Source of the DNA: Candidatus Micrarchaeota archaeon CG10_big_fil_rev_8_21_14_0_10_45_29
GTDB lineage: Archaea > Micrarchaeota > Micrarchaeia > Anstonellales > Anstonellaceae
Assembly: GCA_002778455.1 (NCBI GenBank)
Contig: PFCD01000002.1
Span: 19,203 to 83,202 of the forward strand
Reading direction: 5' to 3'
Length of the DNA stretch: 64,000 bases
The position numbers and the translations under genes were made by a program. The notes beneath the pieces were generated by a model that ran no database searches, was not told the DNA's origin, and saw only the letters and a program-made list of their open reading frames with translations. Shown piece by piece: positions 28,043 to 64,000 of the stretch. How positions within the stretch are numbered: position 1 is the stretch's first letter; each line of letters opens with the position of its first letter.

Positions 28043-28199
28043 GCCCTCCAGCAAAGAAAGCATCGCCTAAAAGTTTGCCAAAAACCCCCGCGCCAAAAAA
28101 ACACAAAAATAACAAATACAGCAAAAACAAGCCCTCCAGCAAAGAAAGCATCGCCTAAAAGTTTGCCAAAAACCCCCGCCCGCCAAAAAAACACAAAAT
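28043..28199. repeat. Two ~67-69-bp direct repeats, period 88 bp, downstream of mcm
   Basis: GCCCTCCAGCAAAGAAAGCATCGCCTAAAAGTTTGCCAAAAACCCCCGC..GCCAAAAAAACACAAAA occurs at 28043-28109 and 28131-28199. The copies differ by a 2-nt indel. Confidence 0.9.
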
Positions 28200-49747: not shown

Positions 49748-50014
49748 TCACAGCCCCGCAAAATCCGCAGCCATTTTCCCTTTAGGAAAGAATTTTCCCG
49801 CCACTCCCCATACAGGCAAATCCATCTCATTTGCAACCCTGAATAATTCCCCTGCATTCACGTTTCTCTCAACTTTTAAAAACGGCACAACAATATCCCC
49901 TATTTTCTCTCTCACAACCTTAAATTCAAAGCGCTGGCGCATCCCTGAGTGCAAAACAAGAATTTCTGCCTTTCCCTCTTTTAATATTTTTTTCCTGCCT
50001 ATTTTCTCATCCAT
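49748..50014 (-). CDS. Hypothetical protein (88 aa)
   Basis: ORF only. Co-directional with the two upstream small genes. Confidence 0.4.
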   Translation of the reverse strand: MDEKIGRKKILKEGKAEILVLHSGMRQRFEFKVVREKIGDIVVPFLKVERNVNAGELFRVANEMDLPVWGVAGKFFPKGKMAADFAGL

Positions 50015-50023
50015 AAAATTCCC

Positions 50024-50299
50024 TCACTCAAATATGTAAACAACATAAACCCTTTTCCCCGCATCATCTTTTTCCAGCTTTATTTCCGCCTTTATGCCCT
50101 GCTTTGCGTATTTTTCCGCCTCCTCTTTGGCAGAATTTGCATAAGGCGTCACATACACCACGCGCTTGCCGTGCTTCCCTGCCCCGAATTTTTTCGGGCG
50201 CATAGGAACAGCAGGTTTTTGCGTAAGCCTTCCTCTCACGGCCTCCCGCCTCTCATCCCTTTGCTTTACCCCGTGCTTTCTTGAATACAAATCAGGCAT
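50024..50299 (-). CDS. Hypothetical basic protein (91 aa)
   Basis: ATG at 50299 (MPDLYSRKHG...). Arg/Lys-rich N-half. No motif recognised. Confidence 0.4.
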   Translation of the reverse strand: MPDLYSRKHGVKQRDERREAVRGRLTQKPAVPMRPKKFGAGKHGKRVVYVTPYANSAKEEAEKYAKQGIKAEIKLEKDDAGKRVYVVYIFE

Positions 50300-50413
50300 A
50301 ACAAAACCCTTTTTCAAATTTTAATTTTTCCCGCATTTTTAACTTTTTTTGCATTTTTAACGCTTATGCTTTTTCTGTTTTATTTAACCTTTTTTACCTC
50401 TTTTTTCATTATT

Positions 50414-50839
50414 TTATTTCTTTCCAGCCCTGCCTTTTTTTATTTCTCTCTCCTTTGCCCCTATCGTTTTATTTAGCTTTTTTATAAGCGCATCAATTTG
50501 CTTATCACTCATCCCGTGCGCAGCGCATCCCTCATATAGCGTCTCAAACCCTGCCGCCGGGCACCCAACGCAATGCATCCCTGCCTCCATCAAATCTGCC
50601 GCCAATTGCGGATACTTCAAAATAATTAGCTCAATAAGGCTATCCCGTTCTATTTTCACAAGATTTTTAAGCGCGCCCGCACCTTTCAAATTTGAAAATT
50701 CAATTTGCGAATATTTCACGTCTCCTCCTCTTTTCTCTTTCGGCTCAATCAACGGCACGCTAATGGAATTTTTGCCCTTTTTTTCTTTTTTCTTTTCCGT
50801 TTTCTTCCCTTCTTTTCCCATGCTAAAATTTAGACGCAT
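50414..50839 (-). CDS. DUF1858-type redox-disulfide domain protein with Lys-rich N-terminus
   Basis: AGMHCVGCPAAGFETLYEGCAAHG matches the hybrid-cluster-associated disulfide motif. Confidence 0.6.
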   Translation of the reverse strand: MRLNFSMGKEGKKTEKKKEKKGKNSISVPLIEPKEKRGGDVKYSQIEFSNLKGAGALKNLVKIERDSLIELIILKYPQLAADLMEAGMHCVGCPAAGFETLYEGCAAHGMSDKQIDALIKKLNKTIGAKEREIKKGRAGKK

Positions 50840-50914
50840 CCCTTTTTATACTCCCCTCTGCCAAATAAGTGTATAAATGCTTAAAATTAAAATTAAAAAT
50901 AAGCGCGTGATTTT

Positions 50915-51319
50915 TTGAAGAGCTATGAAGAACTTTTAAAAAATGCAAAAAAGAACCTTCCGGACAAAATGCAGGGGGGCGAGAGGTTCGAGCCTCCGAG
51001 AGCAAGGGTGCAGCTGCAGGGAAGCAAGGCAATAATACAAAATTTTGACATAATCTGCCAAAAGCTCAGGCGCGACCCTAAATTTTTGGCAAAATACCTT
51101 GGAAAAGAATTGGCGGTGCCAAGCGCGATAGACGGGCCCCGGCTTATTTTGCACGGCAAAATATATGAGAGGCAAATTAACGAGCGGCTTTCAAATTTCA
51201 TAAAAGCATATGTTATATGCAACGAATGCTCCCGCCCGGATACAAAAATAGTTGAAAGCGGAAGCGGAGTAAAAATGCTTGTGTGCGAGGCGTGCGGAGC
51301 GCGCGCGCCCGCAAAATAA
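50915..51319 (+). CDS. eif2b: Translation initiation factor aIF2 beta subunit (TTG start)
   Basis: YEELLKNA..., central helix-turn-helix region and C-terminal zinc ribbon CNECSRPDT...CEACGA. Confidence 0.9.
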   Translation: MKSYEELLKNAKKNLPDKMQGGERFEPPRARVQLQGSKAIIQNFDIICQKLRRDPKFLAKYLGKELAVPSAIDGPRLILHGKIYERQINERLSNFIKAYVICNECSRPDTKIVESGSGVKMLVCEACGARAPAK

Positions 51320-51328
51320 GGTGAATAT

Positions 51329-51697
51329 ATGCCAAAGCCAAGAGGACGAGGAAGAGGAGGGGGCGGATACCACGGCGGGCAGGGCGGGCACAGAAAAGGC
51401 GGGCCGGTTCCAGAAGGCCCGATTCGCGTGCGCCTGCCCCGCGAAGGTGAGATGCTTGGCACCGTAATTCAAACCGTTGGCGGAGGGCGCCTGCAGGTGC
51501 AATGCAAAGACGGCAAGGAAAGAATGTGCCGCATCCCGGGCAAAATAAGGCGCAACATCTGGGTGCGCCCCGGCGACATCGTGCTCATTAAGCCATGGGA
51601 TATTCAGGGCGACACAAAAGCCGACGTTGTGTGGCGCTATAACTATTTGCAGGCAAACTGGCTGCGCGAGCGCGGGCACCTTGACGGCATGCAGTAA
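51329..51697 (+). CDS. eif1a: Translation initiation factor aIF1A with Arg/Gly-rich N-terminal tail
   Basis: OB fold RVRLPREGEMLG.V....GGGRL.V.C.DG..R.CRIPGK.RR.IWV..GD.VL..PW. N-terminus is MPKPRGRGRGGGGYHGGQGGHRKG. Confidence 0.93.
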   Translation: MPKPRGRGRGGGGYHGGQGGHRKGGPVPEGPIRVRLPREGEMLGTVIQTVGGGRLQVQCKDGKERMCRIPGKIRRNIWVRPGDIVLIKPWDIQGDTKADVVWRYNYLQANWLRERGHLDGMQ

Positions 51698-51763
51698 ATT
51701 TTCTTCTTTTTTGCCAAAGCATTTTCTTTATTAATCTTATCTCCCTCTTCTCTTTTGATATTT

Positions 51764-52075
51764 ATGGACGAAGAAGATGAAAAAATAGACAAAGACGGAA
51801 TAGAATACACCTCTGCCTTAAGAAAAAAAATAAGGGAAAAATACAGCCAGCACATAGTGCTTGAAAATTACAAGCTTTCAAAGAAAAACATGTGGTTTGC
51901 AATCGTGCTCGGCTTTGTGTGCCCCCCTGCCGGCTATGCGTATTTGCACCGCTTTGACTTTATGGCAATGAATATCCTTACCCTAAATTACGGGCTAATA
52001 TTCGGCTTTGCCATAGCTCCTGTGCACATTTACCTTATGCTGCAGGATGCGCATGAGCGCACCAAATGGATTTAA
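51764..52075 (+). CDS. Small membrane protein (103 aa)
   Basis: Acidic N-terminus then two hydrophobic segments. ATG at 51764 (a TTG at 51755 is possible). Confidence 0.45.
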   Translation: MDEEDEKIDKDGIEYTSALRKKIREKYSQHIVLENYKLSKKNMWFAIVLGFVCPPAGYAYLHRFDFMAMNILTLNYGLIFGFAIAPVHIYLMLQDAHERTKWI

Positions 52076-52214
52076 GGAAAAAAATATCTCCCATAAAAAA
52101 CACTAACTTCTTTTCCTAAGCTTAGCCTTTGCTGCAATAAGTTTTTTGCTTTTTCTTTTTTCTAAAATTCGCTTATACTCAAGCTTAATTAACTCACAAA
52201 CCCCTAATTCTTTT

Positions 52215-52919
52215 ATGTCTATGAAGCTCTCAAAGAAAAAGCGCCCCCGCCGAGAGGACAAAATAGCCGATTTGCAATGGCCTTTGGAAGAGGGGGTATT
52301 TGACAGAAATTCACTCCTTACTTTGGAAAAATTTACAAAAAAAGGAATTTTTCGCACCCTTGACTATTGCATCGCAGAGGGAAAAGAGGCAAACATTTAC
52401 CGCGGCACAAACAAAGAAGGCGGGCATGTTGCCATAAAAATGTACCGCCTGCGCTCCCCCTCTTTTTTGCATATGCAAAAATATGTTGAGGGAGACAAGC
52501 GCTTCTCCCACGGGGCGCAAAGCAAGCAGGGGATAATTTTCACCTGGACGCGAAAAGAATTTTCCAACCTGAAGATACTTCATGCGGCAGGGCTTCCCGT
52601 GCCCGAGCCGATAGCATTTAAGCACAACGTATTGGCAATGCAGTTTCTGGGGGAAGAAGGAATCCCCTATTCCCAACTCTGCGAAGTTGGCCCCCAAAAC
52701 CCCAAAAAAGACTATGCAACGCTGAAAAAATTGCTTGAGAAAATGAAAAGGGCGGGAATAGTGCACGCAGATTTTTCAGAATACAACATCTTAACCGATG
52801 GCACAAACTTTTTTATAATAGACGTGGGGCAGGCAGTATTAACAACCCACCCCAACGCCGAGGAATTTTATGAGCGGGATATGAAAAACCTCAAAAAATA
52901 TTTTGCAAAGTTCATTTAA
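52215..52919 (+). CDS. rio: RIO-type serine protein kinase
   Basis: GKEANIY, VAIKMYR, HADFSEYNIL and IIDVGQAV motifs. Confidence 0.9.
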   Translation: MSMKLSKKKRPRREDKIADLQWPLEEGVFDRNSLLTLEKFTKKGIFRTLDYCIAEGKEANIYRGTNKEGGHVAIKMYRLRSPSFLHMQKYVEGDKRFSHGAQSKQGIIFTWTRKEFSNLKILHAAGLPVPEPIAFKHNVLAMQFLGEEGIPYSQLCEVGPQNPKKDYATLKKLLEKMKRAGIVHADFSEYNILTDGTNFFIIDVGQAVLTTHPNAEEFYERDMKNLKKYFAKFI

Positions 52920-52963
52920 GCAAAACACACCTATTTTAAATATTTCACACACATAAATATAGC

Positions 52964-53245
52964 ATGGAAAAACAAGCAGCCATAACAGCAGCCGGCGCAA
53001 AAAAGCCAAATAGCCCTTTCACAAAAGAAAAAACCCTTATCGAACTGTATTTTCTTGCCAACGGCGGCTCGCAAAAAAACGAGAGCCATTACAAAATAGT
53101 GCACCACGGCGCAATAGACAAAATTCCTCCAAAAGGATGGGAAGATTATTCCCCGCACACAAAGAAAAAAAGGCGATACCTTGACACAAGCGAGGATTTA
53201 AACTCAAATATGTGCCGCCTCACGCATGATTTGGAAGACAAATAA
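52964..53245 (+). CDS. Hypothetical protein (93 aa)
   Basis: ORF only. First gene after the drop in GC. Confidence 0.35.
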   Translation: MEKQAAITAAGAKKPNSPFTKEKTLIELYFLANGGSQKNESHYKIVHHGAIDKIPPKGWEDYSPHTKKKRRYLDTSEDLNSNMCRLTHDLEDK

Positions 53246-53301
53246 TTTTTTTCCCAAAAATTTTACACAGCTTTAAATATTTGTGCCCGGTAAACAATTA
53301 C

Positions 53302-54141
53302 ATGAGTTTTGCCAAGCCGGAAATTATACAAAAGTGCACAAAAAAAATTGACGGCGCCCGGCAAACTACTTTTAACAACCATAAATACCCCGAAGTTTAC
53401 TGCCAGCTGATAAAGAACATAAAAAACAGGAATTCTGACAGGAGTCCCCCATTCCGGCATTTTCTCCCCGTCTTTGAAGAATTGCGCCAGGATAGGGAAA
53501 AAAAGCCGGCTGACTTTTTATACACTATGGATTTCCTGCTCAAAGGAATCGCCGAAATAAATTCCAACTATCTTACTGATTACAATAAGGTTATTGTGGA
53601 TTGCATCAGAAACGCCACAAAATCTTATGTAGACAATAAAGGGGTGGAGCATTTTGCACAGCGCGCCAAGAAGCTGCAAACGCTGACAATGCTTGCAAAA
53701 AGCGAGCTTTATGCAAAAAATAAATTCTGCAGGTATGTATTGGGCATAAAAGAGGATATAATACAAGAGGCAGAAAAACTTTTTCAGGTTCTAAAAGAGA
53801 AGAGCTACAGCCGCTCGAATGAGCTTAAGGGCTTTGTCCCTCAAAACGGCAGCCCCTTAAATGAAATCGCTCAACGAAATTTCAGCTTTGAGAAATATTT
53901 TGCAGAAATAAAAGAAACACCCATCCCAGATTCCGGGGAGAAAAAAACAATGGTTGCAAGCGACATAATGCTTTATTTTGACATAGCAATACCTCGCCTA
54001 AAAACAATAGGCAAAGAATACAATGAAAATTCTTATGCAGACCAGGTTTTCTCCTGCACTTTTGATTGCATGGAAACAATTTACGCCGGGCTTTACATTT
54101 CATTTGACGCGGGAAAAGAGATCATGTACCCATATACATAA
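53302..54141 (+). CDS. Hypothetical protein (279 aa)
   Basis: Long ORF with no recognised motif. ATG at 53302 (a TTG at 53281 is possible). Confidence 0.5.
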   Translation: MSFAKPEIIQKCTKKIDGARQTTFNNHKYPEVYCQLIKNIKNRNSDRSPPFRHFLPVFEELRQDREKKPADFLYTMDFLLKGIAEINSNYLTDYNKVIVDCIRNATKSYVDNKGVEHFAQRAKKLQTLTMLAKSELYAKNKFCRYVLGIKEDIIQEAEKLFQVLKEKSYSRSNELKGFVPQNGSPLNEIAQRNFSFEKYFAEIKETPIPDSGEKKTMVASDIMLYFDIAIPRLKTIGKEYNENSYADQVFSCTFDCMETIYAGLYISFDAGKEIMYPYT

Positions 54142-54185
54142 GCTGTTACTGCTCTTTTTAAATTTTTCAAAGCATAAATAATTCT

Positions 54186-54413
54186 ATGGTGCATCCGGGT
54201 TTTGCAGCGGCGGCTGCGCAGGCATTCAAAAATTTTTGGGGCAAAAAGCCCAAGCATAAGGTAAAGGACTCATTTTTTCATCGTTTTATGGCAAACAGGC
54301 GCGCCAAAAAATTGCATAAAGAGAGGGAAAAACTCAGGGAAGAAACCAAAAACTTTGAAATAGCCAAGCTTCCTCCAGATATGCTTGAATTGCCTAAAAA
54401 TGAGCATAAATAA
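54186..54413 (+). CDS. Small basic hypothetical protein (75 aa)
   Basis: Lys/Arg-rich helical sequence. Followed by the post-stop motif copy at 54416-54434. Confidence 0.4.
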   Translation: MVHPGFAAAAAQAFKNFWGKKPKHKVKDSFFHRFMANRRAKKLHKEREKLREETKNFEIAKLPPDMLELPKNEHK

Positions 54414-54415
54414 AT

Positions 54416-54434
54416 ATTCTTTTAGTAAAACTAA
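54416..54434 (+). repeat. Post-stop 19-nt motif, copy 1 (ATTCTTTTAGTAAAACTAA)
   Basis: Starts 2 nt after the TAA of 54186..54413. Confidence 0.8.
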
Positions 54435-54517
54435 TACTATATTAGTATAGTATATTTACTAATACCTATTTAGTCACACCAATAAAGTATTAGTATTTAC
54501 ACTTATACAAGAAATAG

Positions 54518-54536
54518 TTAGAATTACTAAAAGAAT
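54518..54536 (-). repeat. Post-stop 19-nt motif, copy 2 (ATTCTTTTAGTAATTCTAA on minus strand)
   Basis: Starts 7 nt after the TAA of 54544..54822. Confidence 0.8.
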
Positions 54537-54543
54537 ATTAGAA

Positions 54544-54822
54544 TTATTTTAAATCACGTGTTTTTGACATGATTTTAATATAATTGGATTCCACATTAAA
54601 GCTAAGCACCCAATTGCACAAGGTTTTTTTCATGCCCATACCTACATATTCCCTTTGATGCTCGCATTTTCCCTTATAAAGGCATTCTTCAAAAAGAGGC
54701 AGCTTCTCTATAGCCCTTCCGTAATTCGCGCCTCCGGGGCAGGGTTTTGCCACTACCGGGCTAGTAATAGGTTTAAGCATATTCAACTCTTTTGAAGAAT
54801 CATGCTTAAAATACTTTGCCAA
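54544..54822 (-). CDS. Hypothetical protein (92 aa, TTG start; alternative ATG at codon 15)
   Basis: ORF with four Cys. No recognised motif. Confidence 0.4.
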   Translation of the reverse strand: MAKYFKHDSSKELNMLKPITSPVVAKPCPGGANYGRAIEKLPLFEECLYKGKCEHQREYVGMGMKKTLCNWVLSFNVESNYIKIMSKTRDLK

Positions 54823-54834
54823 AACTAAAATATA

Positions 54835-54853
54835 TTAGAAAAACCAAAAGAAT
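54835..54853 (-). repeat. Post-stop 19-nt motif, copy 3 (ATTCTTTTGGTTTTTCTAA on minus strand)
   Basis: Starts 6 nt after the TAA of 54860..55582. Confidence 0.8.
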
Positions 54854-54859
54854 ATTAGC

Positions 54860-55582
54860 TTAATAATTTTTTACAATCTTTTTTGCCTCGTCGTATGCAT
54901 CAAGTTTTTTGCCAATATTTGCAATTCTTAGAGAATAAGCATAACCCGCCCCGTAGCGGAAAATGGTTTTTAGCCCCTTTATTCCTATTACCCCAATGCC
55001 AATATAAAGAGCCCGATAACCCACCTCACCCATGACACCGGTCAGGCGGTTGCAGCCCCCAAGAATAATGCCTGTCAATCCTACCGCCCAGCCCAGTGCC
55101 CGGAACTCTGCAAGCCGATAATCATCAAAAAGCCCCCTCCAGCTCTCCTGTCTTATTTCAAGATTTTCTTTTCTTGCTTTAATAGTTTCAATGCTTTTTT
55201 CAACCTCAGGAATATTTGCTATTTCAGCAGCCAGCTCAGTGCACTTTTTCTTATAAGGAGCTATGGCAATATCATAATCTGATTCAGAAACACCAATATT
55301 ATACAAAGCTTGCCTTGCCTTGTAATATGCTTTATCTATTTCATCAAATTCTTTTAATTTTTTTATTACATACTTATCATGTTTTTTCTGCAATTTCCAC
55401 GCATCTGCAGAATTTTTGATTTCTTTTCTTTTTTCCGCCCTTTCAAGCCGTTTTTCTTTTGCCATTGTTTTCCTGGCCAATTTTTGCAAAGCATTTGCAT
55501 GATTGCAGCTAACAGAAATTTCATTACTTTTTGAAAAATACATTGTTTTCACGCGCTGCAAAATAGGTCCCATATTAATCAC
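54860..55582 (-). CDS. Coiled-coil protein with C-terminal glycine-zipper-like membrane segments
   Basis: K/E-rich helical N-part, then WAVGLTGIILGGCNRLTGVMGEVGYRALYIGIGVIGIKG. Confidence 0.5.
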   Translation of the reverse strand: MINMGPILQRVKTMYFSKSNEISVSCNHANALQKLARKTMAKEKRLERAEKRKEIKNSADAWKLQKKHDKYVIKKLKEFDEIDKAYYKARQALYNIGVSESDYDIAIAPYKKKCTELAAEIANIPEVEKSIETIKARKENLEIRQESWRGLFDDYRLAEFRALGWAVGLTGIILGGCNRLTGVMGEVGYRALYIGIGVIGIKGLKTIFRYGAGYAYSLRIANIGKKLDAYDEAKKIVKNY

Positions 55583-55686
55583 TTGTTTTCAATAGTAAAT
55601 TTATGTGTATTCTCCTTTATATTTGTTGCCTATCGTCAATATTTTTCCTAAAAAGCTTTATATTCTACTATTTGCTATAACAATAT

Positions 55687-56229
55687 ATGCTGCTTAAACA
55701 AAAGGATTTAGCTTCCGGCATAAAAAAAGATTCTCCTACACTAGTATACAAATTCTCAAGGTTCAACGCTTTGACTGAATATGCCACAAAGAAAACGTCA
55801 GACAAGGGGCGAGTTTCTGACTCTGATTTTCGCAAAATGGCTGCCTTTCTTATTTCAAATGTTTCACACCAGGTAAAGCACCTGGAAGGCCTCTCTGATG
55901 ATGAAATTAAGGCATTTAAGCAACTAATGTTCTTGCCGTGGGAAAATAAATGCCCAAGAACAATATTTGATTTAGGCGGACCGGGAGATATAGATAATGC
56001 CATAAATATTAATTACAAGAAAATTCTTTTAGAAAAAACCTCAAAAATTGAAAAAGAGAAAGTAAAAACATTTTTTATGACATTTTTTGAAATTATGCAA
56101 CAATTAGATTCAAACCACCATGGACTGCTTGATAATGATGACCCAAAACACCAAACTTACCAGGCATTTGCCTGTGTTGCATTAGTTTCTGCCCGTTTTA
56201 TGCGAATTGCCATAACTTCTACGACGTAA
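55687..56229 (+). CDS. Hypothetical protein (180 aa)
   Basis: ORF only. Followed by the hairpin TTGCTCA/TGAGCAA at 56253-56278. Confidence 0.45.
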   Translation: MLLKQKDLASGIKKDSPTLVYKFSRFNALTEYATKKTSDKGRVSDSDFRKMAAFLISNVSHQVKHLEGLSDDEIKAFKQLMFLPWENKCPRTIFDLGGPGDIDNAININYKKILLEKTSKIEKEKVKTFFMTFFEIMQQLDSNHHGLLDNDDPKHQTYQAFACVALVSARFMRIAITSTT

Positions 56230-56338
56230 AACTTCATGAATGGCATAATCTATTGCTCACAGGGTAGCCCTTGAGCAAGAAAAGTAGTGTGTTTTTGCCT
56301 CTCTTTTTTGCTTACAAAATGAGCAAAAAACAGCTATA

Positions 56339-56563
56339 GTAAACCAGCACATACACTTACTTACTGCTTTGGTAAACCGGCATTAATTTAGCATGCCAAA
56401 GCCCAGGGCCGCAAAAAACTGATGGTTTACAATTACAATATTGAGCTGGCTATGTGGCAGATGCAATCTGGCTTAAACGCGCGAAGTTTTGAAATAGCCG
56501 GGAATTAGATGTTTTGCTATGGTTTTGGGTACTGGTATGATGTTTTGGAGGTGGGGGGTTTAC
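56339..56563. repeat. Four GTAAACC/GGTTTAC boxes in a 350-bp non-coding gap
   Basis: GTAAACC at 56339-56345 and 56372-56378. GGTTTAC at 56424-56430 and 56557-56563. Confidence 0.8.
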
Positions 56564-56579
56564 TGAGAAGGTAAAATAA

Positions 56580-57023
56580 TTAAAGAAATTGCTTCAATCT
56601 GGAAAACTCGTTATCTCCGGCGTTTGTTAAAGTCCAGCCTTTTTCTTTATAAAATTTGAAATATTCTTTTTTCTTGCTAGCCAAGATGGCGCTTATCCTT
56701 TGCGGATGCAAACCCCCAGAATACCCTAATCTTTTGCATGCAAGATATACTTCCTTGGACGATTTCAGATTAAGCGTTCCTATCACCAAAACTAACTGTT
56801 GCCAACCATGCAGTTCTTTAGGCAGAATCAATTCTTCTGCGAGTGTTGTTTTGTCTAGCTTATTTAGAAGATTCAGACGCCTGGTCTCAAGATCCAGCTC
56901 TTTGGTAGTTGTAGCTGTTCTTACCCTTATTGCAGTTTCAATTCGGCCATGAGACACTTTAGTCCGGGCAACTGCATCACTTTTTGTTTTGTCATTGAAG
57001 TTTTTTGCTTCATTCTTGACCAT
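56580..57023 (-). CDS. Hypothetical protein (147 aa), possible C-terminal winged-helix
   Basis: ORF only. The wHTH impression comes from EVYLACKRLGYSGGLHPQRISAILA. Confidence 0.4.
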   Translation of the reverse strand: MVKNEAKNFNDKTKSDAVARTKVSHGRIETAIRVRTATTTKELDLETRRLNLLNKLDKTTLAEELILPKELHGWQQLVLVIGTLNLKSSKEVYLACKRLGYSGGLHPQRISAILASKKKEYFKFYKEKGWTLTNAGDNEFSRLKQFL

Positions 57024-57125
57024 ATAATTCCTAAATGCTTTTAGAGGATATAAATCTATCTAAGCTAAGAGAGTATTAGCTTTTCTAATACGTTATATAA
57101 ATATGCTAGTAATACTAGTAATCTT

Positions 57126-57144
57126 TTAGAAAAACTAAAAGAAT
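57126..57144 (-). repeat. Post-stop 19-nt motif, copy 4 (ATTCTTTTAGTTTTTCTAA on minus strand)
   Basis: Starts 6 nt after the TAA of the GNAT gene. It forms the hairpin CTTTTAG-TTTTT-CTAAAAG. Confidence 0.8.
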
Positions 57145-57150
57145 TACTTA

Positions 57151-57501
57151 TTAAAGCTCAAAATGCATCTGAATGGTCTCCCTTCCGGCTAAATCCGCAA
57201 TATAGGTATAAAAGCCCTTTTTCTTGTACCAAGAGATTACTTTCTCCTTATTGTATGCATGCGCAAGCAAATATGTGCAGCCTATTTCTGCCCTTATGCT
57301 TATCGCCTTCTTGACGGCAAAATCCAGCAATATGCTTGCAGCCCCTCTCCCCTCTTCGTTTTTGTCTGTAGCAAGTTTTCCTATAAGAAGAGCAGGGAAT
57401 GATTTCGGAAAGTCCTTGGGGTAATCCTTGAGCTTTTTATTGCAGAAAACAAATTCTTCGCTTTTCTCCGGCAACTTCATGGCGCCCATGCTTAGAGCCA
57501 T
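57151..57501 (-). CDS. GNAT N-acetyltransferase, toxin-like; ATG-initiated part only
   Basis: Acetyl-CoA motif EEGRGAASILLDFAV. The same frame stays open 83 codons further upstream (to 57750) and encodes the expected GNAT N-terminus (ISILREEHSPLLEKFDCENAELNEFLQKDALGY...). That stretch has no ATG/GTG/TTG start. Confidence 0.65.
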   Translation of the reverse strand: MALSMGAMKLPEKSEEFVFCNKKLKDYPKDFPKSFPALLIGKLATDKNEEGRGAASILLDFAVKKAISIRAEIGCTYLLAHAYNKEKVISWYKKKGFYTYIADLAGRETIQMHFEL

Positions 57502-57707
57502 ATATGAGAGAATCTTCCCCGTTTGCCGGCTTATAAGTAGATAGGTGACACCCAGGTGGAGCGTTTGGTACCCTAAGGCATCCTTTTGGAGAAACTCGTT
57601 AAGCTCCGCATTTTCACAATCAAATTTCTCAAGCAGGGGACTATGTTCTTCTCGCAGAATTGAAATAAAAGTAGAAATAGGGCTGTATCCGGCACCCAGA
57701 AAAACAC

Positions 57708-57845
57708 CTATCTTATCTCGATATTGAGCTTTCTTGCCCTTCGCATAGTTTCATCCCTTGCCGGATTTTTCCTGCCTATACTGGCCAAAAAGCGCTTTGC
57801 CTCTTCAACTGTTAATTCGACCACATAGTCAATTGCCTTTGCCAT
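57708..57845 (-). CDS. Small ORF (45 aa) in the antitoxin position upstream of the GNAT gene
   Basis: MAKAIDYVVELTVEEAKRFLASIGRKNPARDETMRRARKLNIEIR. It overlaps the open GNAT frame. Not listed in the ORF track because it is under 60 aa. Confidence 0.4.
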   Translation of the reverse strand: MAKAIDYVVELTVEEAKRFLASIGRKNPARDETMRRARKLNIEIR

Positions 57846-57960
57846 ATCTATAACCACTATAGAGATATCTAATATAAATCTACTCATTTAGAATATAAAA
57901 AACCAGCATATTTCTAATTTCGCCAGCCAAACGTCCCCACGATTAAAATTATCCATCTTA

Positions 57961-58197
57961 TCACTCTAAGTATTTGTTCCAGGCTTTGCTCTCTTTTGGA
58001 TCATTCCAGTAATCAAGATTGGAGTTTTCCATGGCAAAACGGCTAATCTCCTCGTTTTCTGCTATTTTCTTTCTCTCCTTCTCGTCAAAGTCCCTCAATG
58101 CCATGCGCAGAATTTCCACTTTTGAACCCCCGTATCCTTTTTTGACATATTTTTGTATAAGCTCCTCGTAATAGTTGCCCAAATTAAAGTTAACCAT
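57961..58197 (-). CDS. Ribbon-helix-helix (CopG-like) protein, orphan antitoxin/regulator
   Basis: MVNFNLGNYYEELIQKYVKKGYGGSKVEILRMALRDF fits beta-strand, helix, helix. No partner gene lies in the 115 nt downstream. Confidence 0.55.
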   Translation of the reverse strand: MVNFNLGNYYEELIQKYVKKGYGGSKVEILRMALRDFDEKERKKIAENEEISRFAMENSNLDYWNDPKESKAWNKYLE

Positions 58198-58431
58198 GTT
58201 AAAGCACCAATTGTATATGTGCAATAAATGCTTAATAAATGTATCTTTAATATACATAGAAGCACCCAAAATGGCGGAAAAAGGGAGATACAAGCCTTAA
58301 GCAACAATCCATAAGGAAATATCGAAAATCTCTAATCCAAATCCCCTCACATCAAGTTTGCCCCATGTATGGGCGGGAAGGCTTGCGCCCTCCCCTCTCC
58401 CCTTAACCGCCATCCTGCCTGCAGGCAAGCG

Positions 58432-58842
58432 TTAATCCTTCAGATTCACCTTCCAATTCCATGAGGAGAGAAAAGAATCCATGCGCACCTTTTTCTTCTC
58501 AAGGGCGGTTATTTTGGCAAGAAGCTCCTTTTGGGGCACTTGGAAAATCCTGCGCTTTTCATCCCTAAAGCCCCAGCTTTTTTCCTTGTAATCCGCGCGC
58601 AATTTCTCAAGGGAGGAGAGTTCGGAGCGCATATCTCCCACATAGTGTATTGCCTCTGCCATGCCCATCTTCCCCTCCGGAGTGTCTATAAAATTTGAGT
58701 GGTTTGCCTCCTCCACCTTTATTTTGAGCTTTCGTATCTCTTTTGAGAGGGCGCCTATTTGGGAGGTTAGGCCTTCAAACTTCTCGTCGGCGGCAAAATC
58801 CCGCCCCTCCTCGCATGAAAAAGAGCTCTCGCGGGCCTCCAT
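58432..58842 (-). CDS. Coiled-coil hypothetical protein (136 aa)
   Basis: Heptad-rich sequence. GC content is like the core genome. Confidence 0.45.
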   Translation of the reverse strand: MEARESSFSCEEGRDFAADEKFEGLTSQIGALSKEIRKLKIKVEEANHSNFIDTPEGKMGMAEAIHYVGDMRSELSSLEKLRADYKEKSWGFRDEKRRIFQVPQKELLAKITALEKKKVRMDSFLSSWNWKVNLKD

Positions 58843-58974: not shown

Positions 58975-59712
58975 TTATCCCAGAGTCCAGCCGCCATCCA
59001 CAACTAAAATTTGCCCTGTAATGTATTCCGCCTTGTCCGAGCACAAAAACGTTGCCACTGTGGCTATATCTTTGGGCGTTCCGCGCCTTTTCCAGGGTAT
59101 TCTTGCGGCAATCTGCTCCCTTGCTTTTGCATCCATGGAACCCTTTGTTCCAGGCGTATCTATGCCTCCGGGCGCAATTGCGTTTATGTTAATTTTTTTA
59201 GATGCAAGCTCTAAAGCCGCAGAGCGCACAAGCGCATTCATTCCCCCCTTTGAGGCGCAGTAATGGGAGAGGCCTGAAAAGCCAATCATTGAGGCAATAG
59301 AGCTAATCATCAAGATTTTTGAGCCGGGCTTCATTATTTTAGATGCTTCCTTTATGGCAAAGAAACTGCCCTTCAAATTAGTATCAAGGACCAAATCCCA
59401 GTCTTTTTCCTCTATTTGGCTTATGGATTTGAAGGGGTAAATGCCTGCATTATTTACAAAAATATCTATTTTTTTGAATTTGTTTTTTGTTGTTTTTATG
59501 AGATTTCTTATTTGATTTGTATCTGAAACATCACAGGCAATTCCAAGCGTTTTTACCTTGTATTTTGAGGCGATTTTTTTGGCTGTTTTTTCGCAGTCTT
59601 TCTGGTTTAGGGAGGCAATAATTACTGTTGCTTTTTCTTTTGCAAACTCTTCTGCTATCCCAAGCCCTATTCCCTTTGTAGAGCCGGTTATTATTGCTAC
59701 TTTATTTTTCAT
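58975..59712 (-). CDS. Short-chain dehydrogenase/reductase (FabG-like)
   Basis: TGSTKGIG cofactor motif, NNAG and catalytic YCASK. 245 aa. Confidence 0.92.
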   Translation of the reverse strand: MKNKVAIITGSTKGIGLGIAEEFAKEKATVIIASLNQKDCEKTAKKIASKYKVKTLGIACDVSDTNQIRNLIKTTKNKFKKIDIFVNNAGIYPFKSISQIEEKDWDLVLDTNLKGSFFAIKEASKIMKPGSKILMISSIASMIGFSGLSHYCASKGGMNALVRSAALELASKKININAIAPGGIDTPGTKGSMDAKAREQIAARIPWKRRGTPKDIATVATFLCSDKAEYITGQILVVDGGWTLG

Positions 59713-59742
59713 TGAAAAAGAGAGGGGGAGGGAGTTTAAAAG
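59623..59742. repeat. Direct repeat A (120 bp): SDR promoter-proximal region plus codons 1-30
   Basis: 114/120 identical to 61878-61997 by hand alignment. Confidence 0.95.
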
Positions 59743-59826
59743 AAAGAGGGGTTAGCTTGTTGGTTTCAGTTTTACTTTGCCAAAGCCAGATACCATGGAG
59801 AGAGAAGAGAGATAAATGACAAAAAA

Positions 59827-60972
59827 CTATTTCTTTGCCTCAAGCCCCTTCACGAAACCAATCAGTTTTTCATGAAGAGTTATCAACAGACTTTTATCAT
59901 AAAATGGTTTATTGGATTTCTCAAGGAGAAGATTAATTTCCTTGTAAGTTTCCCAGAACTGCATCTCCTTGAGTGTAGCTTTATTATCCTCCGCACTTCG
60001 GATAAAAAATTTGTAAGTTATATCCACATTGCTATTGCTTAGGCGAGCAGACACCAAAGTGCGTATGCGTATGGCTTCTGAGAGAAGTTCAGACAAATCA
60101 GCCTTTGGGCTTTTATTTGAATGATAATTTGTTATAGCTTTTTCTAGAGTAGCCAAATCCTGTTGGGATGGGTTTATCGGCTTCTCCGCAATCTTTGCAA
60201 AGAACATTCTCAGAGGTTCAGTCGGCTCTTTTTCAGGGATGTTTGTTAATTGTCGGTAGTTAATATAAGGGTCAAATTCTTTTTCATTTTCTAGTGCCAT
60301 CGTGTGAATGGGAGAACCTAAACAATCAGCATATCCAATCTCATAATGGCAGTAAGTACTTTTTAGTTGGTAGTTTTTTGAGGCGACGACAATGATACTC
60401 TTGGAATTTCGTATGGAATCCTTTATTCCGGGGTGCCATTCCTTCCCGTGTTTAAGATCCTTGTGGGCTATGAATGCAATGTAATCAGCACGCTCTAGAA
60501 TTTGTTCAACTGCTTTGGCAATATCATAATCGTAGCTTGAATGACAGATGAAAAAATCCACCCCCTTAGTGCTATTTTTAGGAATGTCAATTCTAGAGTC
60601 TATTAACCGTGTAAGATTTTCGGGAGTTAGAACGTCACCATCTTTCAAAACAGTCCTTCTAGTTCTAATCCGCGATATTAAAGCTGGAGAATGAAGGCGA
60701 ATTGTGTCCAATAACCTAGATACAGTTCCATTCTTTACAAAAATTCCATAAGAGATTGAATCTTTTATTGAAGTCAATCCAGCGATGCTGTCCTTTAATT
60801 CAGATACGGCCGCATGATCCCACGAAGGATCCACAATCTCTAATAGCCCCTTTATCTGTGAACATATATCTACACATTTTCCCTTAAACTTATCAAAGGA
60901 ATATGTCGTATAAGCAGGGATATAACTAAGATCAGCTTCGAGGTTATTCAGTTCAGAATCGCTCAACGCCAT
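59827..60972 (-). CDS. TIR-domain protein with unassigned N- and C-terminal domains (381 aa)
   Basis: Central region VDFFICHSSYDYDIAKAVEQIL...GKEW...IRNSKSIIVVASKNYQLKSTYCHYEIG matches the TIR pattern (D-F-F-I-S/C-H, ...ivV.S.n...S.w...E). Confidence 0.8.
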   Translation of the reverse strand: MALSDSELNNLEADLSYIPAYTTYSFDKFKGKCVDICSQIKGLLEIVDPSWDHAAVSELKDSIAGLTSIKDSISYGIFVKNGTVSRLLDTIRLHSPALISRIRTRRTVLKDGDVLTPENLTRLIDSRIDIPKNSTKGVDFFICHSSYDYDIAKAVEQILERADYIAFIAHKDLKHGKEWHPGIKDSIRNSKSIIVVASKNYQLKSTYCHYEIGYADCLGSPIHTMALENEKEFDPYINYRQLTNIPEKEPTEPLRMFFAKIAEKPINPSQQDLATLEKAITNYHSNKSPKADLSELLSEAIRIRTLVSARLSNSNVDITYKFFIRSAEDNKATLKEMQFWETYKEINLLLEKSNKPFYDKSLLITLHEKLIGFVKGLEAKK

Positions 60973-61172
60973 GTTAGTTCCCCTGATGCTTTCTCTAGTC
61001 GAGAGTACATAAAAAACTACGCTAGGCTATCTCACTGCCTTAAACTCCAATTTTTTCCCTATTTTGAGTGTGCAGACAAGCTCCACGGATTCAAAATTTT
61101 TCCCAAAAACTTCAATTTCAAGCAAGTTTAGATAATGTTTTACCAGACATTGTCGTTGGTCTCTAAAAGTAC

Positions 61173-61664
61173 TTATCTAATGGCATTTCTAAGATCAACC
61201 AGTTCACTCCTTATTTCCTTATTTATACGAATATCCTGCTTATGTTTACGTTCCAGGTCTGACAAATATTTCTCGTTGGACTTTATGATATTACGTATAA
61301 ATCTATTTATGTGATACGAACTTGGAACTCTGGAGTTCCTTTTGTTCCCCGTAGGTTTATGCAAAGATAATACAAGCGCCTCGAGATCCTTGACATATTT
61401 TACTTTTTTTATTATGATCAATTTGAATCTATCCCATTTTTTTGCATGTCTATCTTTTATGTGGTCTTTAACCCGTTTATGTAGATTATTTGCCAAACCA
61501 ACATAATAAAGCTCATCGTCTTTGTATAATCCATATATCCCTGAATATTTTCTAAGAAGAGTCTTGATCTCATCTTTCAACCAGAAATTTTCTAGAATGT
61601 CACCTGGAAGTGGCTTTGAAATCTCTTTTACCAGAGAACCGCGGCTACTTTTCTTTTTAGGCAT
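61173..61664 (-). CDS. GIY-YIG nuclease-domain protein (163 aa)
   Basis: SGIYGLYKDDELYYVGLANNLHKRVKDH plus a downstream Glu (DLEALVL) fit the GIY-YIG core. Helical charged C-terminus. Confidence 0.75.
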   Translation of the reverse strand: MPKKKSSRGSLVKEISKPLPGDILENFWLKDEIKTLLRKYSGIYGLYKDDELYYVGLANNLHKRVKDHIKDRHAKKWDRFKLIIIKKVKYVKDLEALVLSLHKPTGNKRNSRVPSSYHINRFIRNIIKSNEKYLSDLERKHKQDIRINKEIRSELVDLRNAIR

Positions 61665-61826
61665 ACTCAGCTACAATAGCCACAGCGTAAGGAATATTTT
61701 TATGACTTACCATATAGCCACTGGATTCATGACAGCTATTTTTATAGGAACCCGCATAAAAGAGTAGCATGGAGCAGCGACTTATTAATGGATACCTAGC
61801 AGGCATTGGCAGTATCACTGCCACCA

Positions 61827-61967
61827 TTATGCTTGGCATATACACACTAAATAATCTTTGGGCGTACCAACCCAGACTACTGCTGCTTTTTCTTTTGCAA
61901 ACTCTTCTGCTATCCCAAGCCCAATTCCCTTTGTGGAGCCGGTTATAATTGTTACTTTATTTTTCAT
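61827..61967 (-). pseudogene. Truncated SDR 5' fragment (46 codons)
   Basis: MKNKVTIITGSTKGIGLGIAEEFAKEKAAVV then divergence and a stop. The first 30 codons lie inside direct repeat B. Confidence 0.8.
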
Positions 61968-61997
61968 TGAAAAAGACAGGGGGAGGGAGTTTAAAAG
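61878..61997. repeat. Direct repeat B (120 bp)
   Basis: 114/120 identical to 59623-59742. Confidence 0.95.
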
Positions 61998-62106
61998 GGT
62001 TTAATATTGGGCGTGAGAAATGTACTAGGTCACATGAGAATTTTTATATGCTACTGGGTTGGCACCTCTAGGTAGGAATTTAAAGTAATGGAGTTAAATA
62101 AGACCG

Positions 62107-64000
62107 ATGGATTTTATCACCCTTGGAAAAGAGAAAAAGAAAATACCGGTGGCTATCAGCTACGGGATAATATCACTTTTTTCAAAAGGTCTATACAAAA
62201 GTGGTAACAAGGCAATCGAGGAACTCGTTACAAATTCGTTTGATGCGATGGCCAGTAATGTATATGTTGAGTTTCCGGATGACCATACTGACAAAGACGC
62301 AAAAATAGTTGTGATAGATGATGGAGAAGGCATGGATGATTCTGGATTTGAAAACCTTTGGAAAGTTGGAAAGAGTTATAAGCGAGAACATGAGATAGCT
62401 GGAAGAAGAAAATCCATAGGGAAATTTGGAATAGGAAAGCTGGCAACATACATACTAGCATCTAAATTGACTCACATCTCCAAGAGAGATGGAAAATTTT
62501 TAGCAACCACAATGGATTATGAAGATATCGATAAAGAGGGAGATGGAGAGATTAGGACCAAAGAGAGAAAAATAAGCATGCGTGAGCTAAGCCGAGAAGA
62601 GGTTGAAAAGGTAATACAGCAGCTTCCTGAATTCCCTCCAGGAGATCGTACAACATATAATGATAAACTTTTGGGGGTAAGGGCGTCTAAAACCTGGACT
62701 ATTGCTATTATGTCCAAACTAAAAGATCTGGCTCGAGGAGTTCAACGAGGGAGATTAAGATGGATCCTAGAAACTGCCATGCCACTCAGAGACGATTTCA
62801 ATATTTTTCTGAATAGGGAAAAGCTGAAGCCATCTAAGATCAAGTTTGAGAAATACGGTAAGTGGGTTCTCGGAAAAGATATCAAGGCAAAGGAACTTGG
62901 ACCGACCGCTTCAGATAAATGGGAAGCTCTTAAAGATGGAAAAAAGAACTATTTTTTGACACATCCTGAACTAGGAAAAATCTGGGGCTATGCTGAGCTA
63001 TACAAAGATATCTTGGAAGGTGGAAAATCTGACACGACTGGAAGAAGCAATGGATTTTTTGTCTATGTGAGAGAAAGACTTGTGAATATAGAAGATCCGT
63101 ATTTTGGTCTGGACAGTAACAAGCTCTGGCACGGGACATTCTCAAGGTTCAGATTAGTGATTCATATTGATTCACTCGATGAGGAACTGCGCTCGAGCAG
63201 GGAGGTCGTGCAAGAAGGAGTACTAATGAATACAACAAATAATCTACTTTATTCAGTATTTAACTTCTTGGACAAAGAATACAAAAAAAAGAAAAAACAA
63301 GATGATCCTGATCGCAAGACGACTGCACGAGTTGAAGGAGTTGCTAGAAGCCTCACTCGGAGACCAATTCTATATGCCTTGAGGAGATCCATCGAGGAGG
63401 ATATTTCCTTAAAATATATGAAATTTGGAGAGATATCGAAAAGCAAAGATAAAAAACAAGCACTCGAGTTTCTAAGTTCTAAGACAAAGGAGGGAGAGTT
63501 TTTCAAAGAGTTTTCAGTAGAACCTACTGGGGACCAGTACGTGTTGACCTTTGATATCGAAACTGGAAGGGTGGTAATCAACAGCTTGCACCCATATATA
63601 TGTCTCTTGATGGGGGATTATAATCTCAATCCGGCTCAGTTGCAATTATTTGCAGTGTCTGAAATATTGCTTGAGGCTTATTTGTATGAGGCAGGCATAG
63701 CATATTCACAGATTATGGATATTCTTGAGACGAGAGATGAGATATTCCGGGAACTAGCCAGAACGTCAAGCAGAAAATCGGCTTATGCCATTGCACAGAA
63801 TCTCTGTGATTCCGCGAACGATGAGAAGAAACTGGAACAGGCACTGGTCGAATGTTTCGAATCCTTAGGTTTCTATGACGTTGCACCCATATCTGGAAAG
63901 GGGGAACCAGATGGAATTGCCAGCGCAAGATTACCTTACAGTGATGGAAAGCATCAGTCATACAAGGCTACGCTGGAAGCAAAGAGTAAACAAAAACCCG
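62107..64000 (+). CDS. GHKL (Hsp90/MORC-like) ATPase fused to a PD-(D/E)xK (Mrr-like) nuclease region; 3' end outside window
   Basis: Not in the ORF track because there is no stop in the window. Hand translation from the ATG at 62107 is open to nt 64000 (631 codons). It has N-box EELVTNSFDA, G1 DDGEGMD and G2 GKFGIGKL. Near the end, ECFESLGFYDV..GKGEPDGIA...(x19)...LEAKSK fits D...ExK. Confidence 0.8.
   Translation, partial: MDFITLGKEKKKIPVAISYGIISLFSKGLYKSGNKAIEELVTNSFDAMASNVYVEFPDDHTDKDAKIVVIDDGEGMDDSGFENLWKVGKSYKREHEIAGRRKSIGKFGIGKLATYILASKLTHISKRDGKFLATTMDYEDIDKEGDGEIRTKERKISMRELSREEVEKVIQQLPEFPPGDRTTYNDKLLGVRASKTWTIAIMSKLKDLARGVQRGRLRWILETAMPLRDDFNIFLNREKLKPSKIKFEKYGKWVLGKDIKAKELGPTASDKWEALKDGKKNYFLTHPELGKIWGYAELYKDILEGGKSDTTGRSNGFFVYVRERLVNIEDPYFGLDSNKLWHGTFSRFRLVIHIDSLDEELRSSREVVQEGVLMNTTNNLLYSVFNFLDKEYKKKKKQDDPDRKTTARVEGVARSLTRRPILYALRRSIEEDISLKYMKFGEISKSKDKKQALEFLSSKTKEGEFFKEFSVEPTGDQYVLTFDIETGRVVINSLHPYICLLMGDYNLNPAQLQLFAVSEILLEAYLYEAGIAYSQIMDILETRDEIFRELARTSSRKSAYAIAQNLCDSANDEKKLEQALVECFESLGFYDVAPISGKGEPDGIASARLPYSDGKHQSYKATLEAKSKQKP

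Follow-up and report, generated by a model that had tools for sequence, protein, structure and literature searches.

A TIR and GIY-YIG gene cassette between two copies of an SDR gene start in a Micrarchaeota defence island

In the 64-kb stretch of DNA that we analysed (the window), two genes, one for a TIR-domain protein and one for a small GIY-YIG nuclease-domain protein, lie between two copies of the start of an SDR gene, each comprising its promoter and first 30 codons. The copies have sharp homology borders and differ by 5 %, one heads an intact gene and the other a stub, and no mobility gene accompanies the cassette. The host is an archaeon, as a preliminary description of this DNA had claimed, namely a groundwater Candidatus Micrarchaeota (DPANN). 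We tentatively propose that the TIR and GIY-YIG module was passively acquired from a related lineage by homology-anchored import that displaced the old SDR 5′ end. From the anatomy of the locus, we infer the direction of the event, its donor and the recombination pathway.

The duplicated SDR gene start

The preliminary description placed a 120-nt direct repeat at 59623-59742 and 61878-61997, and its coordinates are exact: the two copies are identical at 114 of 120 positions. Also correct is its account of what the repeat covers, namely about 30 nt ahead of the ATG and the first 30 codons of the SDR gene on the minus strand, and of an intact 245-aa SDR at the left copy and a 46-codon stub at the right one. 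The features of the locus are as follows.

58975..59712, minus strand: intact SDR / FabG-like oxidoreductase, 245 aa, headed by the left repeat copy
59623..59742, minus strand: left, gene-proximal repeat copy, with a TATA-like box, spacer, ATG and codons 1-30 of the intact SDR
59743..61877, minus strand: segment between the repeats, 2135 bp, 37.6 % GC, both genes co-oriented with the SDR
59827..60972, minus strand: TIR-domain protein, 381 aa, with an N-terminal domain (1-135), a TIR domain (~138-245) and a helical C-terminal domain
61173..61664, minus strand: small GIY-YIG nuclease-domain protein, 163 aa (Pfam PF01541, E 4e-7)
61827..61967, minus strand: SDR 5′ stub ORF, 46 codons, residues 1-31 SDR-like (adh_short, E 6e-6), the rest unrelated
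61878..61997, minus strand: right repeat copy (114/120), with the same TATA-like box and 30 codons, then unrelated sequence
62107..64000, plus strand: HATPase_c_3 protein similar to BbrUII/HgiDII-family restriction enzymes, cut off by the end of the window (full length 826 aa)

This repeat is the sole one of its kind in the whole window. Neither a third copy of the 120-nt site nor further SDR stubs, of the kind that serial displacement or tandem accretion would leave, were found in the window or in the 9 kb to its right.

The left copy has a TATA-like TTTTAAA box at -29..-23, followed by a 22-nt spacer and the ATG at 59712. Since the repeat begins exactly at this box, each copy amounts, by the usual geometry of archaeal promoters, to a full minimal promoter plus a gene start. 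A scan of this archaeal DNA for promoters and terminators with bacterial-type models gave only background-level signal.

Of the six differences between the copies, one lies ahead of the ATG, at position -10, and the other five are in the coding part; of these five, three are synonymous (codons 7, 11 and 15), as counted previously, and two are not (codon 6, A/T; codon 29, T/A). This ratio weakly suggests two functional genes diverging under selection, although by our binomial estimate it is not significant (p ~0.1). At codon 6, the stub has the derived state, A6T; alanine is the majority residue here among the closest listed SDR homologues. The repeats share an identical run of 39 nt.

On both sides, the homology ends abruptly. 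In local alignments, the 150 nt beyond either end of the repeat score no higher than shuffled sequence, and the only sequence shared across the cassette ends is the 120-nt SDR block, with both outer junctions dropping to random. Such edges, where 95 % identity gives way to chance similarity, indicate recombination junctions rather than gradual decay.

Several contigs terminate within the repeats (L004 and L103), as might be seen if the repeat were an assembly or chimera artefact. However, these ends lie in or near the 39-nt identical run, where de Bruijn graphs are expected to break, and the two copies differ at six positions. Contigs from several separate samples, drawn from JGI, ENA and Logan, span the full structure without a mismatch, at 100 % identity, which rules out an assembly artefact; we give that explanation virtually no credence. 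A single further JGI contig differs, solely by a 25-nt duplication. Samples in which this population is represented include Logan SRR6240789, ENA ERZ27293414 and JGI 3300004208, 3300004209, 3300004210 and 3300025850.

Content of the cassette and the surrounding island

The preliminary description reported two genes and no integrase or transposase in the 2135 bp, and family searches agree: apart from the TIR_2 protein (Pfam E 8e-13) and the GIY-YIG protein (E 4e-7), nothing has a family match. Searches for integrase, recombinase and transposase families were negative in the cassette, in ~6 kb to its left and ~9 kb to its right, and in the ~11-kb island described below. Terminal inverted repeats are absent from the cassette ends and from that island. 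The marks of a transposon, IS or casposon are likewise missing, in that the cassette contains no transposase or Cas1 and the duplication is 120 bp long and imperfect. Non-coding sequence makes up only some 500 nt of the cassette, too little to contain an integrase remnant. Within this portion, the 84 nt between the TIR stop codon and the left repeat are unlike the region downstream of the SDR.

The low GC content that had been taken to set the cassette apart is real (37.6 % vs 45 %) but not distinctive. Positions 1-50000 of the window have 45.4 % and the whole window 44.3 %, whereas the left neighbours (50000-58400) have 40.1 %, the right flank 40.2 % and the SDR 5′ part 34 %, and the whole 53-71 kb region is similar. 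GC content thus does not distinguish the cassette from the DNA next to it. Within the SDR gene, GC3 changes from ~0.29 in codons 1-100 to ~0.49 in codons 101-245. We considered this shift as a possible recombination breakpoint and rejected it: GC is equally low in both repeat copies, so the shift is older than, or independent of, the cassette event.

The cassette is the opening unit of a restriction-modification island of ~11 kb directly upstream of the SDR. The gene for the HATPase-type restriction enzyme would be the first of the older part of this island. It and the stub diverge, and the 139 nt of intergenic DNA between them resemble an original promoter region. Beyond the window, the island continues with two methyltransferases, HNH, MjaV and a YhcG/NucS-like nuclease, followed by an MBL-fold gene at the window-equivalent of ~71 kb.

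The TIR domain resembles the ThsB-type TIR proteins of Thoeris. It matches several PADLOC ThsB models, with E values from 5.6e-9 for the best to 1e-3, and has the conserved glutamate (E211) within a C-x-Y-E motif. Unlike ThsB, the protein carries extra N- and C-terminal domains, and no ThsA partner (SIR2/SLOG or Macro) lies near it: neither SIR2, SLOG nor Macro is matched among the neighbouring GIY-YIG, SDR, HATPase-type restriction enzyme and methyltransferase proteins. Among 5.8 billion clusters, just one homologue of the protein was found. That homologue has no GIY-YIG neighbour, and the gene upstream of it is related neither to the N-terminal domain of the window TIR protein nor to the GIY-YIG protein.

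The GIY-YIG protein, by comparison, belongs to a large family of at least 1,600 clusters. Its motif residues (Y44 of GIY, Y53/Y54 of YYVG, R64, H68, E95 and N107) are invariant in nine homologues. Pfam and family models detect no recognizable DNA-binding domain in it, and its AlphaFold model has a single long C-terminal helix (116-162) predicted at low confidence (pLDDT 60). In a profile search, the best 150 family representatives included 68 with RAMA, 44 with DUF4357, 4 with HARE-HTH and 1 with EVE, and the RAMA-fused representatives matched the family profile at E ~1e-33 to 1e-28. Judged by sequence, these fusions are a restriction-type set and not a homing-endonuclease set. Two-domain nucleases in which GIY-YIG is joined to RAMA or DUF4357 are predicted to be modification-dependent, type IV-like restriction enzymes (PMC11037411). 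The window domain is clearly homologous to theirs and shares the conserved catalytic residues. However, RAMA, DUF4357, HARE-HTH and EVE are all missing from the window protein and from its nearest relatives; these proteins of 136-163 aa have just a basic N-terminus and the long C-terminal helix. We think that the two cassette products, a putative NADase-type TIR effector and a putative restriction-type nuclease, probably act independently and form neither a functional pair nor a mobility apparatus.

Origin of the arrangement

The preliminary description offered two scenarios, an insertion that restored its target gene or an import together with donor flank, and the anatomy fits: a sharp 120-bp duplication with an intact gene at one end and a stub at the other. 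In the import that we tentatively favour, the TIR and GIY-YIG genes would be an accessory, probably defence, module and the innermost unit of the ~11-kb island. The module would have come most likely from a related Micrarchaeota lineage, about 5 % diverged, on a piece of DNA that also bore the donor's version of the SDR gene start, with its core promoter and 5′ coding part. Integration may then have been the work of the host's recombination machinery: the SDR sequence would have served as homologous anchor, and the far end would have been joined to the resident SDR illegitimately, at codon 31/32, a case of homology-facilitated illegitimate recombination. A single crossover with a circular fragment bearing the 120-bp homology would be topologically equivalent and give the same product. 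In either case, the incoming promoter and 5′ end would now head the intact SDR, and the resident promoter and first 30 codons would have been displaced outward to become the stub, beside their original divergent neighbour, the restriction-enzyme gene. To our knowledge, next to nothing has been established about how DPANN archaea take up and recombine DNA, which counts against this reading.

The proposed distance to the donor has a counterpart in a related lineage. The only close relative on record, L017, is a 1-kb contig that covers the SDR 3′ end alone, where it is identical to the source genome at 145 of 153 positions (8/153 mismatches). The lineage is seen in JGI 3300037810 (contig Ga0376277_0672555). 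The 5 % divergence between the repeat copies equals the divergence between the two lineages at that end. The downstream neighbour of the SDR in L017 differs from that in the source genome, so the SDR is conserved while its flanks vary. Otherwise, the SDR has few near relatives: its 90 % cluster holds one extra member, a 53-aa fragment, and no other full-length protein, and the next-best full-length homologues in a protein search are only 66-68 % identical.

The SDR protein search, the SDR 90 % cluster and scans of metagenomes and genomes put no donor, intermediate or empty form on record. A degenerate 62-nt pattern (SDR residues 8-28), which matches both window copies as a control, and the exact 39-nt core each gave 0 matches in metagenome_contigs, a collection that returns no source-population contigs either; the 39-nt core also gave 0 in viral_contigs. 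The search of genome contigs, a collection from which the source genome is absent, returned only distant bacterial SDRs (≤40 % identity). More distant Micrarchaeia SDR loci (61 % amino acid identity) have no stubs and no islands, which leaves the idea of a recurrent recombination hotspot at this site unsupported. When the 5′ ends of four Micrarchaeia SDR loci were each compared with themselves, no duplication appeared, and a search of 84 loci for second SDR-like segments found no stubs, with a distant second SDR-like gene in L021.

An unlikely alternative is that the repeats are the attL and attR sites of a site-specific element that targets the SDR 5′ end and brings a replacement promoter with it. 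Such an element would be non-autonomous, its integrase lost or supplied in trans, much like a cis-mobilisable element. The repeat block indeed makes up a functional unit and its borders are sharp, the cassette and its target are co-oriented, and the 120-bp unit of promoter plus 30 codons resembles a target-restoring attachment site (PMC10111431). Integrases that cross over inside a gene, such as icd or a tRNA gene, typically restore the target and leave imperfect identity blocks of up to ~250 bp (PMC10111431). As in those islands and prophages, the insert is bounded on each side by a long, imperfect identity block; the interrupted gene end is replaced by the element-side copy, which keeps the gene functional, and the displaced fragment lies at the far end. 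Against this, the cassette is only 2.1 kb with two genes, and no integrase or recombinase family is matched in its 2135 bp, in the ~11-kb island or in the 6 kb to the left; its ~500 non-coding nucleotides could not house a remnant. The restored end is the 5′ end with its promoter rather than the 3′ end, no attB or attP form and no excised or empty form has been observed, and the lack of a third site copy in the window or within 9 kb speaks against tandem accretion. An older in-situ event, in which a local duplication of the SDR or of its 5′ end was followed by replacement of most of the upstream copy by incoming genes and by divergence of the copies, seems to us more doubtful still. It would dispense with an SDR-bearing donor, and the A6T change of the stub is what a decaying copy should show. 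However, at each end the similarity collapses from 95 % to the random level over a few bases, without any gradient of decay, the 84 nt next to the left repeat do not resemble the SDR downstream region, and the duplication unit would need to have ended right at the left border. The three synonymous changes among five also weakly suggest selection in two functional genes rather than decay.

The preliminary description further proposed that the GIY-YIG enzyme could be a homing-type mobiliser, cutting cassette-free SDR alleles and driving the copying of both genes as a self-mobile defence cassette. The catalytic residues are intact and invariant, members of the family occur in variable regions and islands beside tRNA or toxin-antitoxin genes, and there is a match to TIGR01453 (group I intron endonuclease), although at 19.9 bits it is far below the cutoff of 56. 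I-TevI and the T4 Seg enzymes likewise combine a GIY-YIG catalytic fold with a small gene in a variable region. The comparison fails in other respects. In the window protein, we found neither a linker nor an I-TevI/Seg-type DNA-binding module, the locus lacks any phage or intron setting, and the domains fused to its relatives are DNA readers of the restriction type. Homing copies an element without duplicating its flanks, so a duplication at the flanks is not what homing would leave. Nor do other loci point to a mobile pair: TIR and GIY-YIG genes co-occur in no other recovered locus, an outcome that the preliminary description had itself named as refuting its model, the partner gene differs in each locus examined and is never TIR, and the contexts of the GIY-YIG homologues are unrelated and include no SDR gene. 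At three other GIY-YIG loci, there are no flanking direct repeats, DNA similarity to the closest of the other loci is confined to the ORF, and viral contigs contain no relatives. We consider homing very improbable. There is a slightly better, but still slim, chance that the cassette represents a new type of non-autonomous archaeal mobile unit, with the SDR promoter and 30 codons as attachment or homing site and the target always restored. Such a unit would move between Micrarchaeota through an unrecognised recombinase acting in trans or through GIY-YIG breaks in cassette-free SDR alleles.

Displacement as a possible route into defence islands

The import that we propose has a bacterial precedent. 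Homology-facilitated illegitimate recombination was put forward to explain displaced fragments in Vibrio T6SS effector-immunity arrays and in Rhs/CDI loci (PMC5361080). As proposed there, incoming DNA and resident locus would share one conserved segment, the module would land beside a conserved gene, and the old gene end would be pushed outward together with a short block of homology. In neither case is there a dedicated recombinase, and in both the pathway is deduced. The arrays have a constant 5′ toxin-gene body with displaced 3′ ends and immunity genes, whereas here the constant gene is the SDR and the displaced part is its promoter and 5′ end. The present locus differs further in its housekeeping-type SDR, its unrelated defence-type cargo and its DPANN archaeal host.

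The locus draws attention to two poorly known proteins, a TIR protein almost without relatives and a short branch of a large GIY-YIG family that is otherwise fused to restriction-type readers. More broadly, little is known about how DPANN archaea, with their very small genomes, acquire and exchange defence genes. Here we have a clean, independently re-assembled case in which an accessory module has been inserted with no mobility gene and with the neighbouring gene not inactivated. If the reading by recombination only is true, then DPANN defence islands can grow by displacement, as has been proposed for bacterial toxin arrays.

The duplicated SDR gene end and its island

A 120-nt direct repeat (59623-59742 and 61878-61997, 114/120 identical), the only long dispersed repeat pair in the 64-kb window, brackets a 2135-bp cassette that encodes two proteins, both in the orientation of the SDR gene. 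In minus-strand orientation, both copies open with a TATA-like TTTTAAA box at -29 to -23 from the ATG and end with codon 30 of a gene of the SDR/FabG-like type. The copies differ at six positions: one, at -10, precedes the ATG, and five are coding, of which three are synonymous (codons 7, 11 and 15) and two are not (A6T and T29A). Past both repeat ends, similarity between the left and right loci is at the level of shuffled sequence, so the borders are sharp junctions rather than decayed homology.

Features of the SDR locus and the adjoining island
58975-59712, minus: intact SDR, 245 aa, left repeat copy at its head (adh_short_C2, E 3e-71)
61878-61997 (right copy), minus: head of the SDR stub, 46 codons
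within 59743-61877, minus: TIR protein, 381 aa, TIR domain central (TIR_2, E 8e-13)
within 59743-61877, minus: GIY-YIG protein, 163 aa (PF01541, E 4e-7)
first island gene right of the stub: 826-aa HATPase_c_3 protein resembling BbrUII/HgiDII-type restriction enzymes
rest of the island, rightward: methyltransferase; HNH protein; MjaV-type endonuclease and second methyltransferase; YhcG/NucS-like nuclease

The repeat structure is not an assembly artefact, a reading that the preliminary description had allowed for and to which we give almost no credence: the arrangement is 100 % identical in contigs of separate JGI, ENA and Logan samples, and one more JGI contig carries it with a 25-nt duplication. 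Contigs ending within the repeats do so in or near a 39-nt identical run, the kind of break expected from de Bruijn assemblers. In JGI 3300004208 (locus L016:1390-1440), a 25-nt tandem duplication, TAACTCTTCATGAAAAACTGATTGG, at ~59856, toward the TIR gene's 3' end, frameshifts the final 9 TIR residues to give a 375-aa variant (protein P0136); it could be a population polymorphism or reflect relaxed selection on TIR.

The TIR protein matches PADLOC ThsB models (best E 5.6e-9) and keeps the conserved Glu at position 211. Thoeris was ruled out because ThsA is absent. An ORF of 62 codons, lying between the GIY-YIG gene and the stub, had no family match, and a search for inverted repeats at the cassette ends found none. 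The right-hand island begins 139 nt from the stub, in divergent orientation, and its restriction-type genes continue to an MBL-fold gene at window-equivalent ~71 kb, making the cassette the innermost unit of a ~11-kb defence island. The recovered locus L102:1-9300 (window-equivalent 62.1-71.4 kb) appears to contain a pair of type II restriction-modification units, in which the BbrUII/HgiDII-like HATPase enzyme and MjaV are each accompanied by a methyltransferase.

Leftward from the SDR gene to ~53 kb, the window carries a DUF6847 gene, orphan ORFs and pairs that resemble toxin-antitoxin modules, followed by core genes (RIO kinase, eIF-2 beta, eIF1A and pentose-phosphate enzymes). The toxin-antitoxin-like genes at 57151-58293 encode a ParD/RHH-like protein and a GNAT-type protein preceded by a small ORF; their presence shows that the SDR gene is flanked by the variable region on either side. 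No integrase or transposase family was detected in the cassette, the island or the left stretch to ~53 kb. On this absence within the cassette, on the repeat coordinates and identity, on three of five coding differences being synonymous and on the 245-aa and 46-codon ORFs, our results agree with the preliminary description. Its low-GC cassette holds against positions 1-50000 (37.6 % versus 45.4 %), but the flanks are similarly low (40.1 % in 50000-58400 and 40.2 % in 61998-64000), and GC3 is ~0.32-0.42 in island genes versus ~0.44-0.52 in core genes. The composition is common to the whole variable region, not distinct from it. GC3 within the SDR gene is ~0.29 in codons 1-100 and ~0.49 in codons 101-245; this shift was rejected as evidence for a recombination breakpoint and is not assignable to the cassette event, because both repeat copies are equally AT-rich.

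Other features of the window include a 25-nt repeat (57821-57845 and 58638-58662, 88 %) encoding MA[KE]AI[DH]YV, once in a 59-aa ORF beside a GNAT-type gene and once in the DUF6847 gene. Such a match would not be expected between genes that are unrelated; it could be a further minor relic of recombination. There are intergenic tandem duplications at 28007-28182 (2 x 88 nt, 84 %) and 24294-24387 (2 x 47 nt, 94 %). An Rfam tRNA spanning 134 nt (3207-3340, 47 bits), missed by ARAGORN, is probably an intron-containing archaeal tRNA, and an eIF1A-like ORF with a Gly/Arg-rich N-terminal extension (51329-51697) forms the regional GC peak at 60.7 %.

Relatives of the cassette proteins

Only one homologue of the TIR protein was found in a database of 5.8 billion clusters; it is 57 % identical across the TIR and C-terminal parts and different at the N-terminus. 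The gene upstream of this homologue encodes an unrelated protein of 198 aa, and its 14.7-kb locus contains no GIY-YIG gene. A word-based search returned eight GIY-YIG homologues, and three kinds of context were examined. Downstream of the 70 %-identical homologue is a protein of 306 aa with only a weak HEPN-like signal, downstream of a 42 %-identical one is a DUF2971 protein (260 aa) abutting tRNA-His, and a third is solitary among NERD, HNH, Schlafen-like helicase and Fic genes. TIR gene, SDR gene and flanking direct repeats are absent from all three, and at the DNA level the window resembles the closest GIY-YIG locus only across the GIY-YIG ORF (61666-61306, 75 %). The two genes thus do not co-occur in the other loci recovered from the available data, an outcome that the preliminary description had named as counting against its reading.

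Short GIY-YIG relatives at two recovered loci (L006:10001-11535 and L009:8001-9356) each have a different same-strand downstream gene at gaps of 84-122 nt, one encoding the 306-aa protein, with a weak RiboL-PSP HEPN signal, and the other the 260-aa DUF2971 protein. The nuclease could be one that exchanges partners, or the adjoining genes could be mere island neighbours.

A family profile built from nine GIY-YIG sequences matched 1,620 cluster representatives at E <= 1e-3 and 599 at E <= 1e-10. Among the best 150 of the 1,620, fused domains were RAMA (68/150), DUF4357 (44/150), HARE-HTH (4/150) and EVE (1/150), all of them modules with which restriction-type proteins read DNA or its modifications. 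Fusions of GIY-YIG to RAMA have been described as candidates for modification-dependent restriction enzymes (PMC11037411). Against the curated group I intron endonuclease model the cassette protein scored 19.9 bits, below the cutoff of 56; matches to PDB sequences were marginal (UvrC 0.002, I-TevI 0.29), and no relatives were found in viral contigs. Its AlphaFold model is poor (pLDDT 60), with a beta-beta-alpha-beta-alpha core, one long C-terminal helix and no separate DNA-binding domain seen. The catalytic residues are invariant among homologues, and the protein is therefore probably an active nuclease. Its kin, judged by sequence, are restriction-type rather than homing enzymes.

Origin of the arrangement

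The 90 % cluster of the SDR protein contains the query and one 53-aa fragment, and the next full-length homologues are at 66-68 % identity. No empty site (one SDR 5' end without the cassette) was found in metagenome_contigs, viral_contigs and genome_contigs, in scans that did not return the source population's own contigs. The contig that carries this fragment, from a related lineage (JGI 3300037810; L017:1-700 versus window 58984-59136) matches the SDR 3' end at 145/153 positions (94.8 %), so a lineage ~5 % diverged exists, and this divergence equals that between the two repeat copies. Similarity ends at the SDR stop codon, and a 154-aa membrane protein takes the place of DUF6847. The SDR gene is conserved, with both flanks variable between lineages. 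In more distant Micrarchaeia (61 % amino acid identity) the SDR gene lies amid transporter genes, and no stub was found at those loci.

Of five readings we prefer, tentatively, homology-anchored import from a related lineage. The anatomy and the negative findings were observed directly, and we infer the donor, the direction and the pathway: incoming DNA carrying GIY-YIG, TIR and the SDR promoter and 5' region would have recombined with the resident SDR gene through shared SDR sequence, and illegitimate joining at codon 31/32 would have fixed its far end. Next to the divergent gene that had originally adjoined them, the resident promoter and 30 codons would survive as the stub. The same product would result from a single crossover with a circular fragment that shares the 120-bp homology. 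Import requires no mobility genes and so fits their observed absence. The outcome parallels the displacement model put forward for T6SS, Rhs and CDI arrays (PMC5361080).

An integrase-mediated element with a target-restoring att block has precedent at icd and tRNA genes (PMC10111431), but the recombinase is absent here and the cassette has no room for an integrase remnant, which makes this reading unlikely. Less probable again is an old local duplication followed by replacement, against which the sharp repeat borders count. Homing leaves flanks unduplicated. The preliminary description's homing-type nuclease is thus highly improbable, given the duplicated flanks, the restriction-type kin with their fused reading modules, the sub-threshold intron endonuclease score and the lack of viral-contig relatives. 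Its self-mobile cassette is the least supported part of that finding, the pair being unlinked in the other loci recovered and the nuclease lacking homing kinship.

The structure belongs to none of the homing-endonuclease, transposon or casposon families, and membership among integrase-type islands fails for want of an integrase. It adds a new case to kinds of event already known, with a gene end duplicated at a genomic-island edge and a displaced gene fragment, in a host from an under-studied archaeal group and with two cargo genes that are each obscure.
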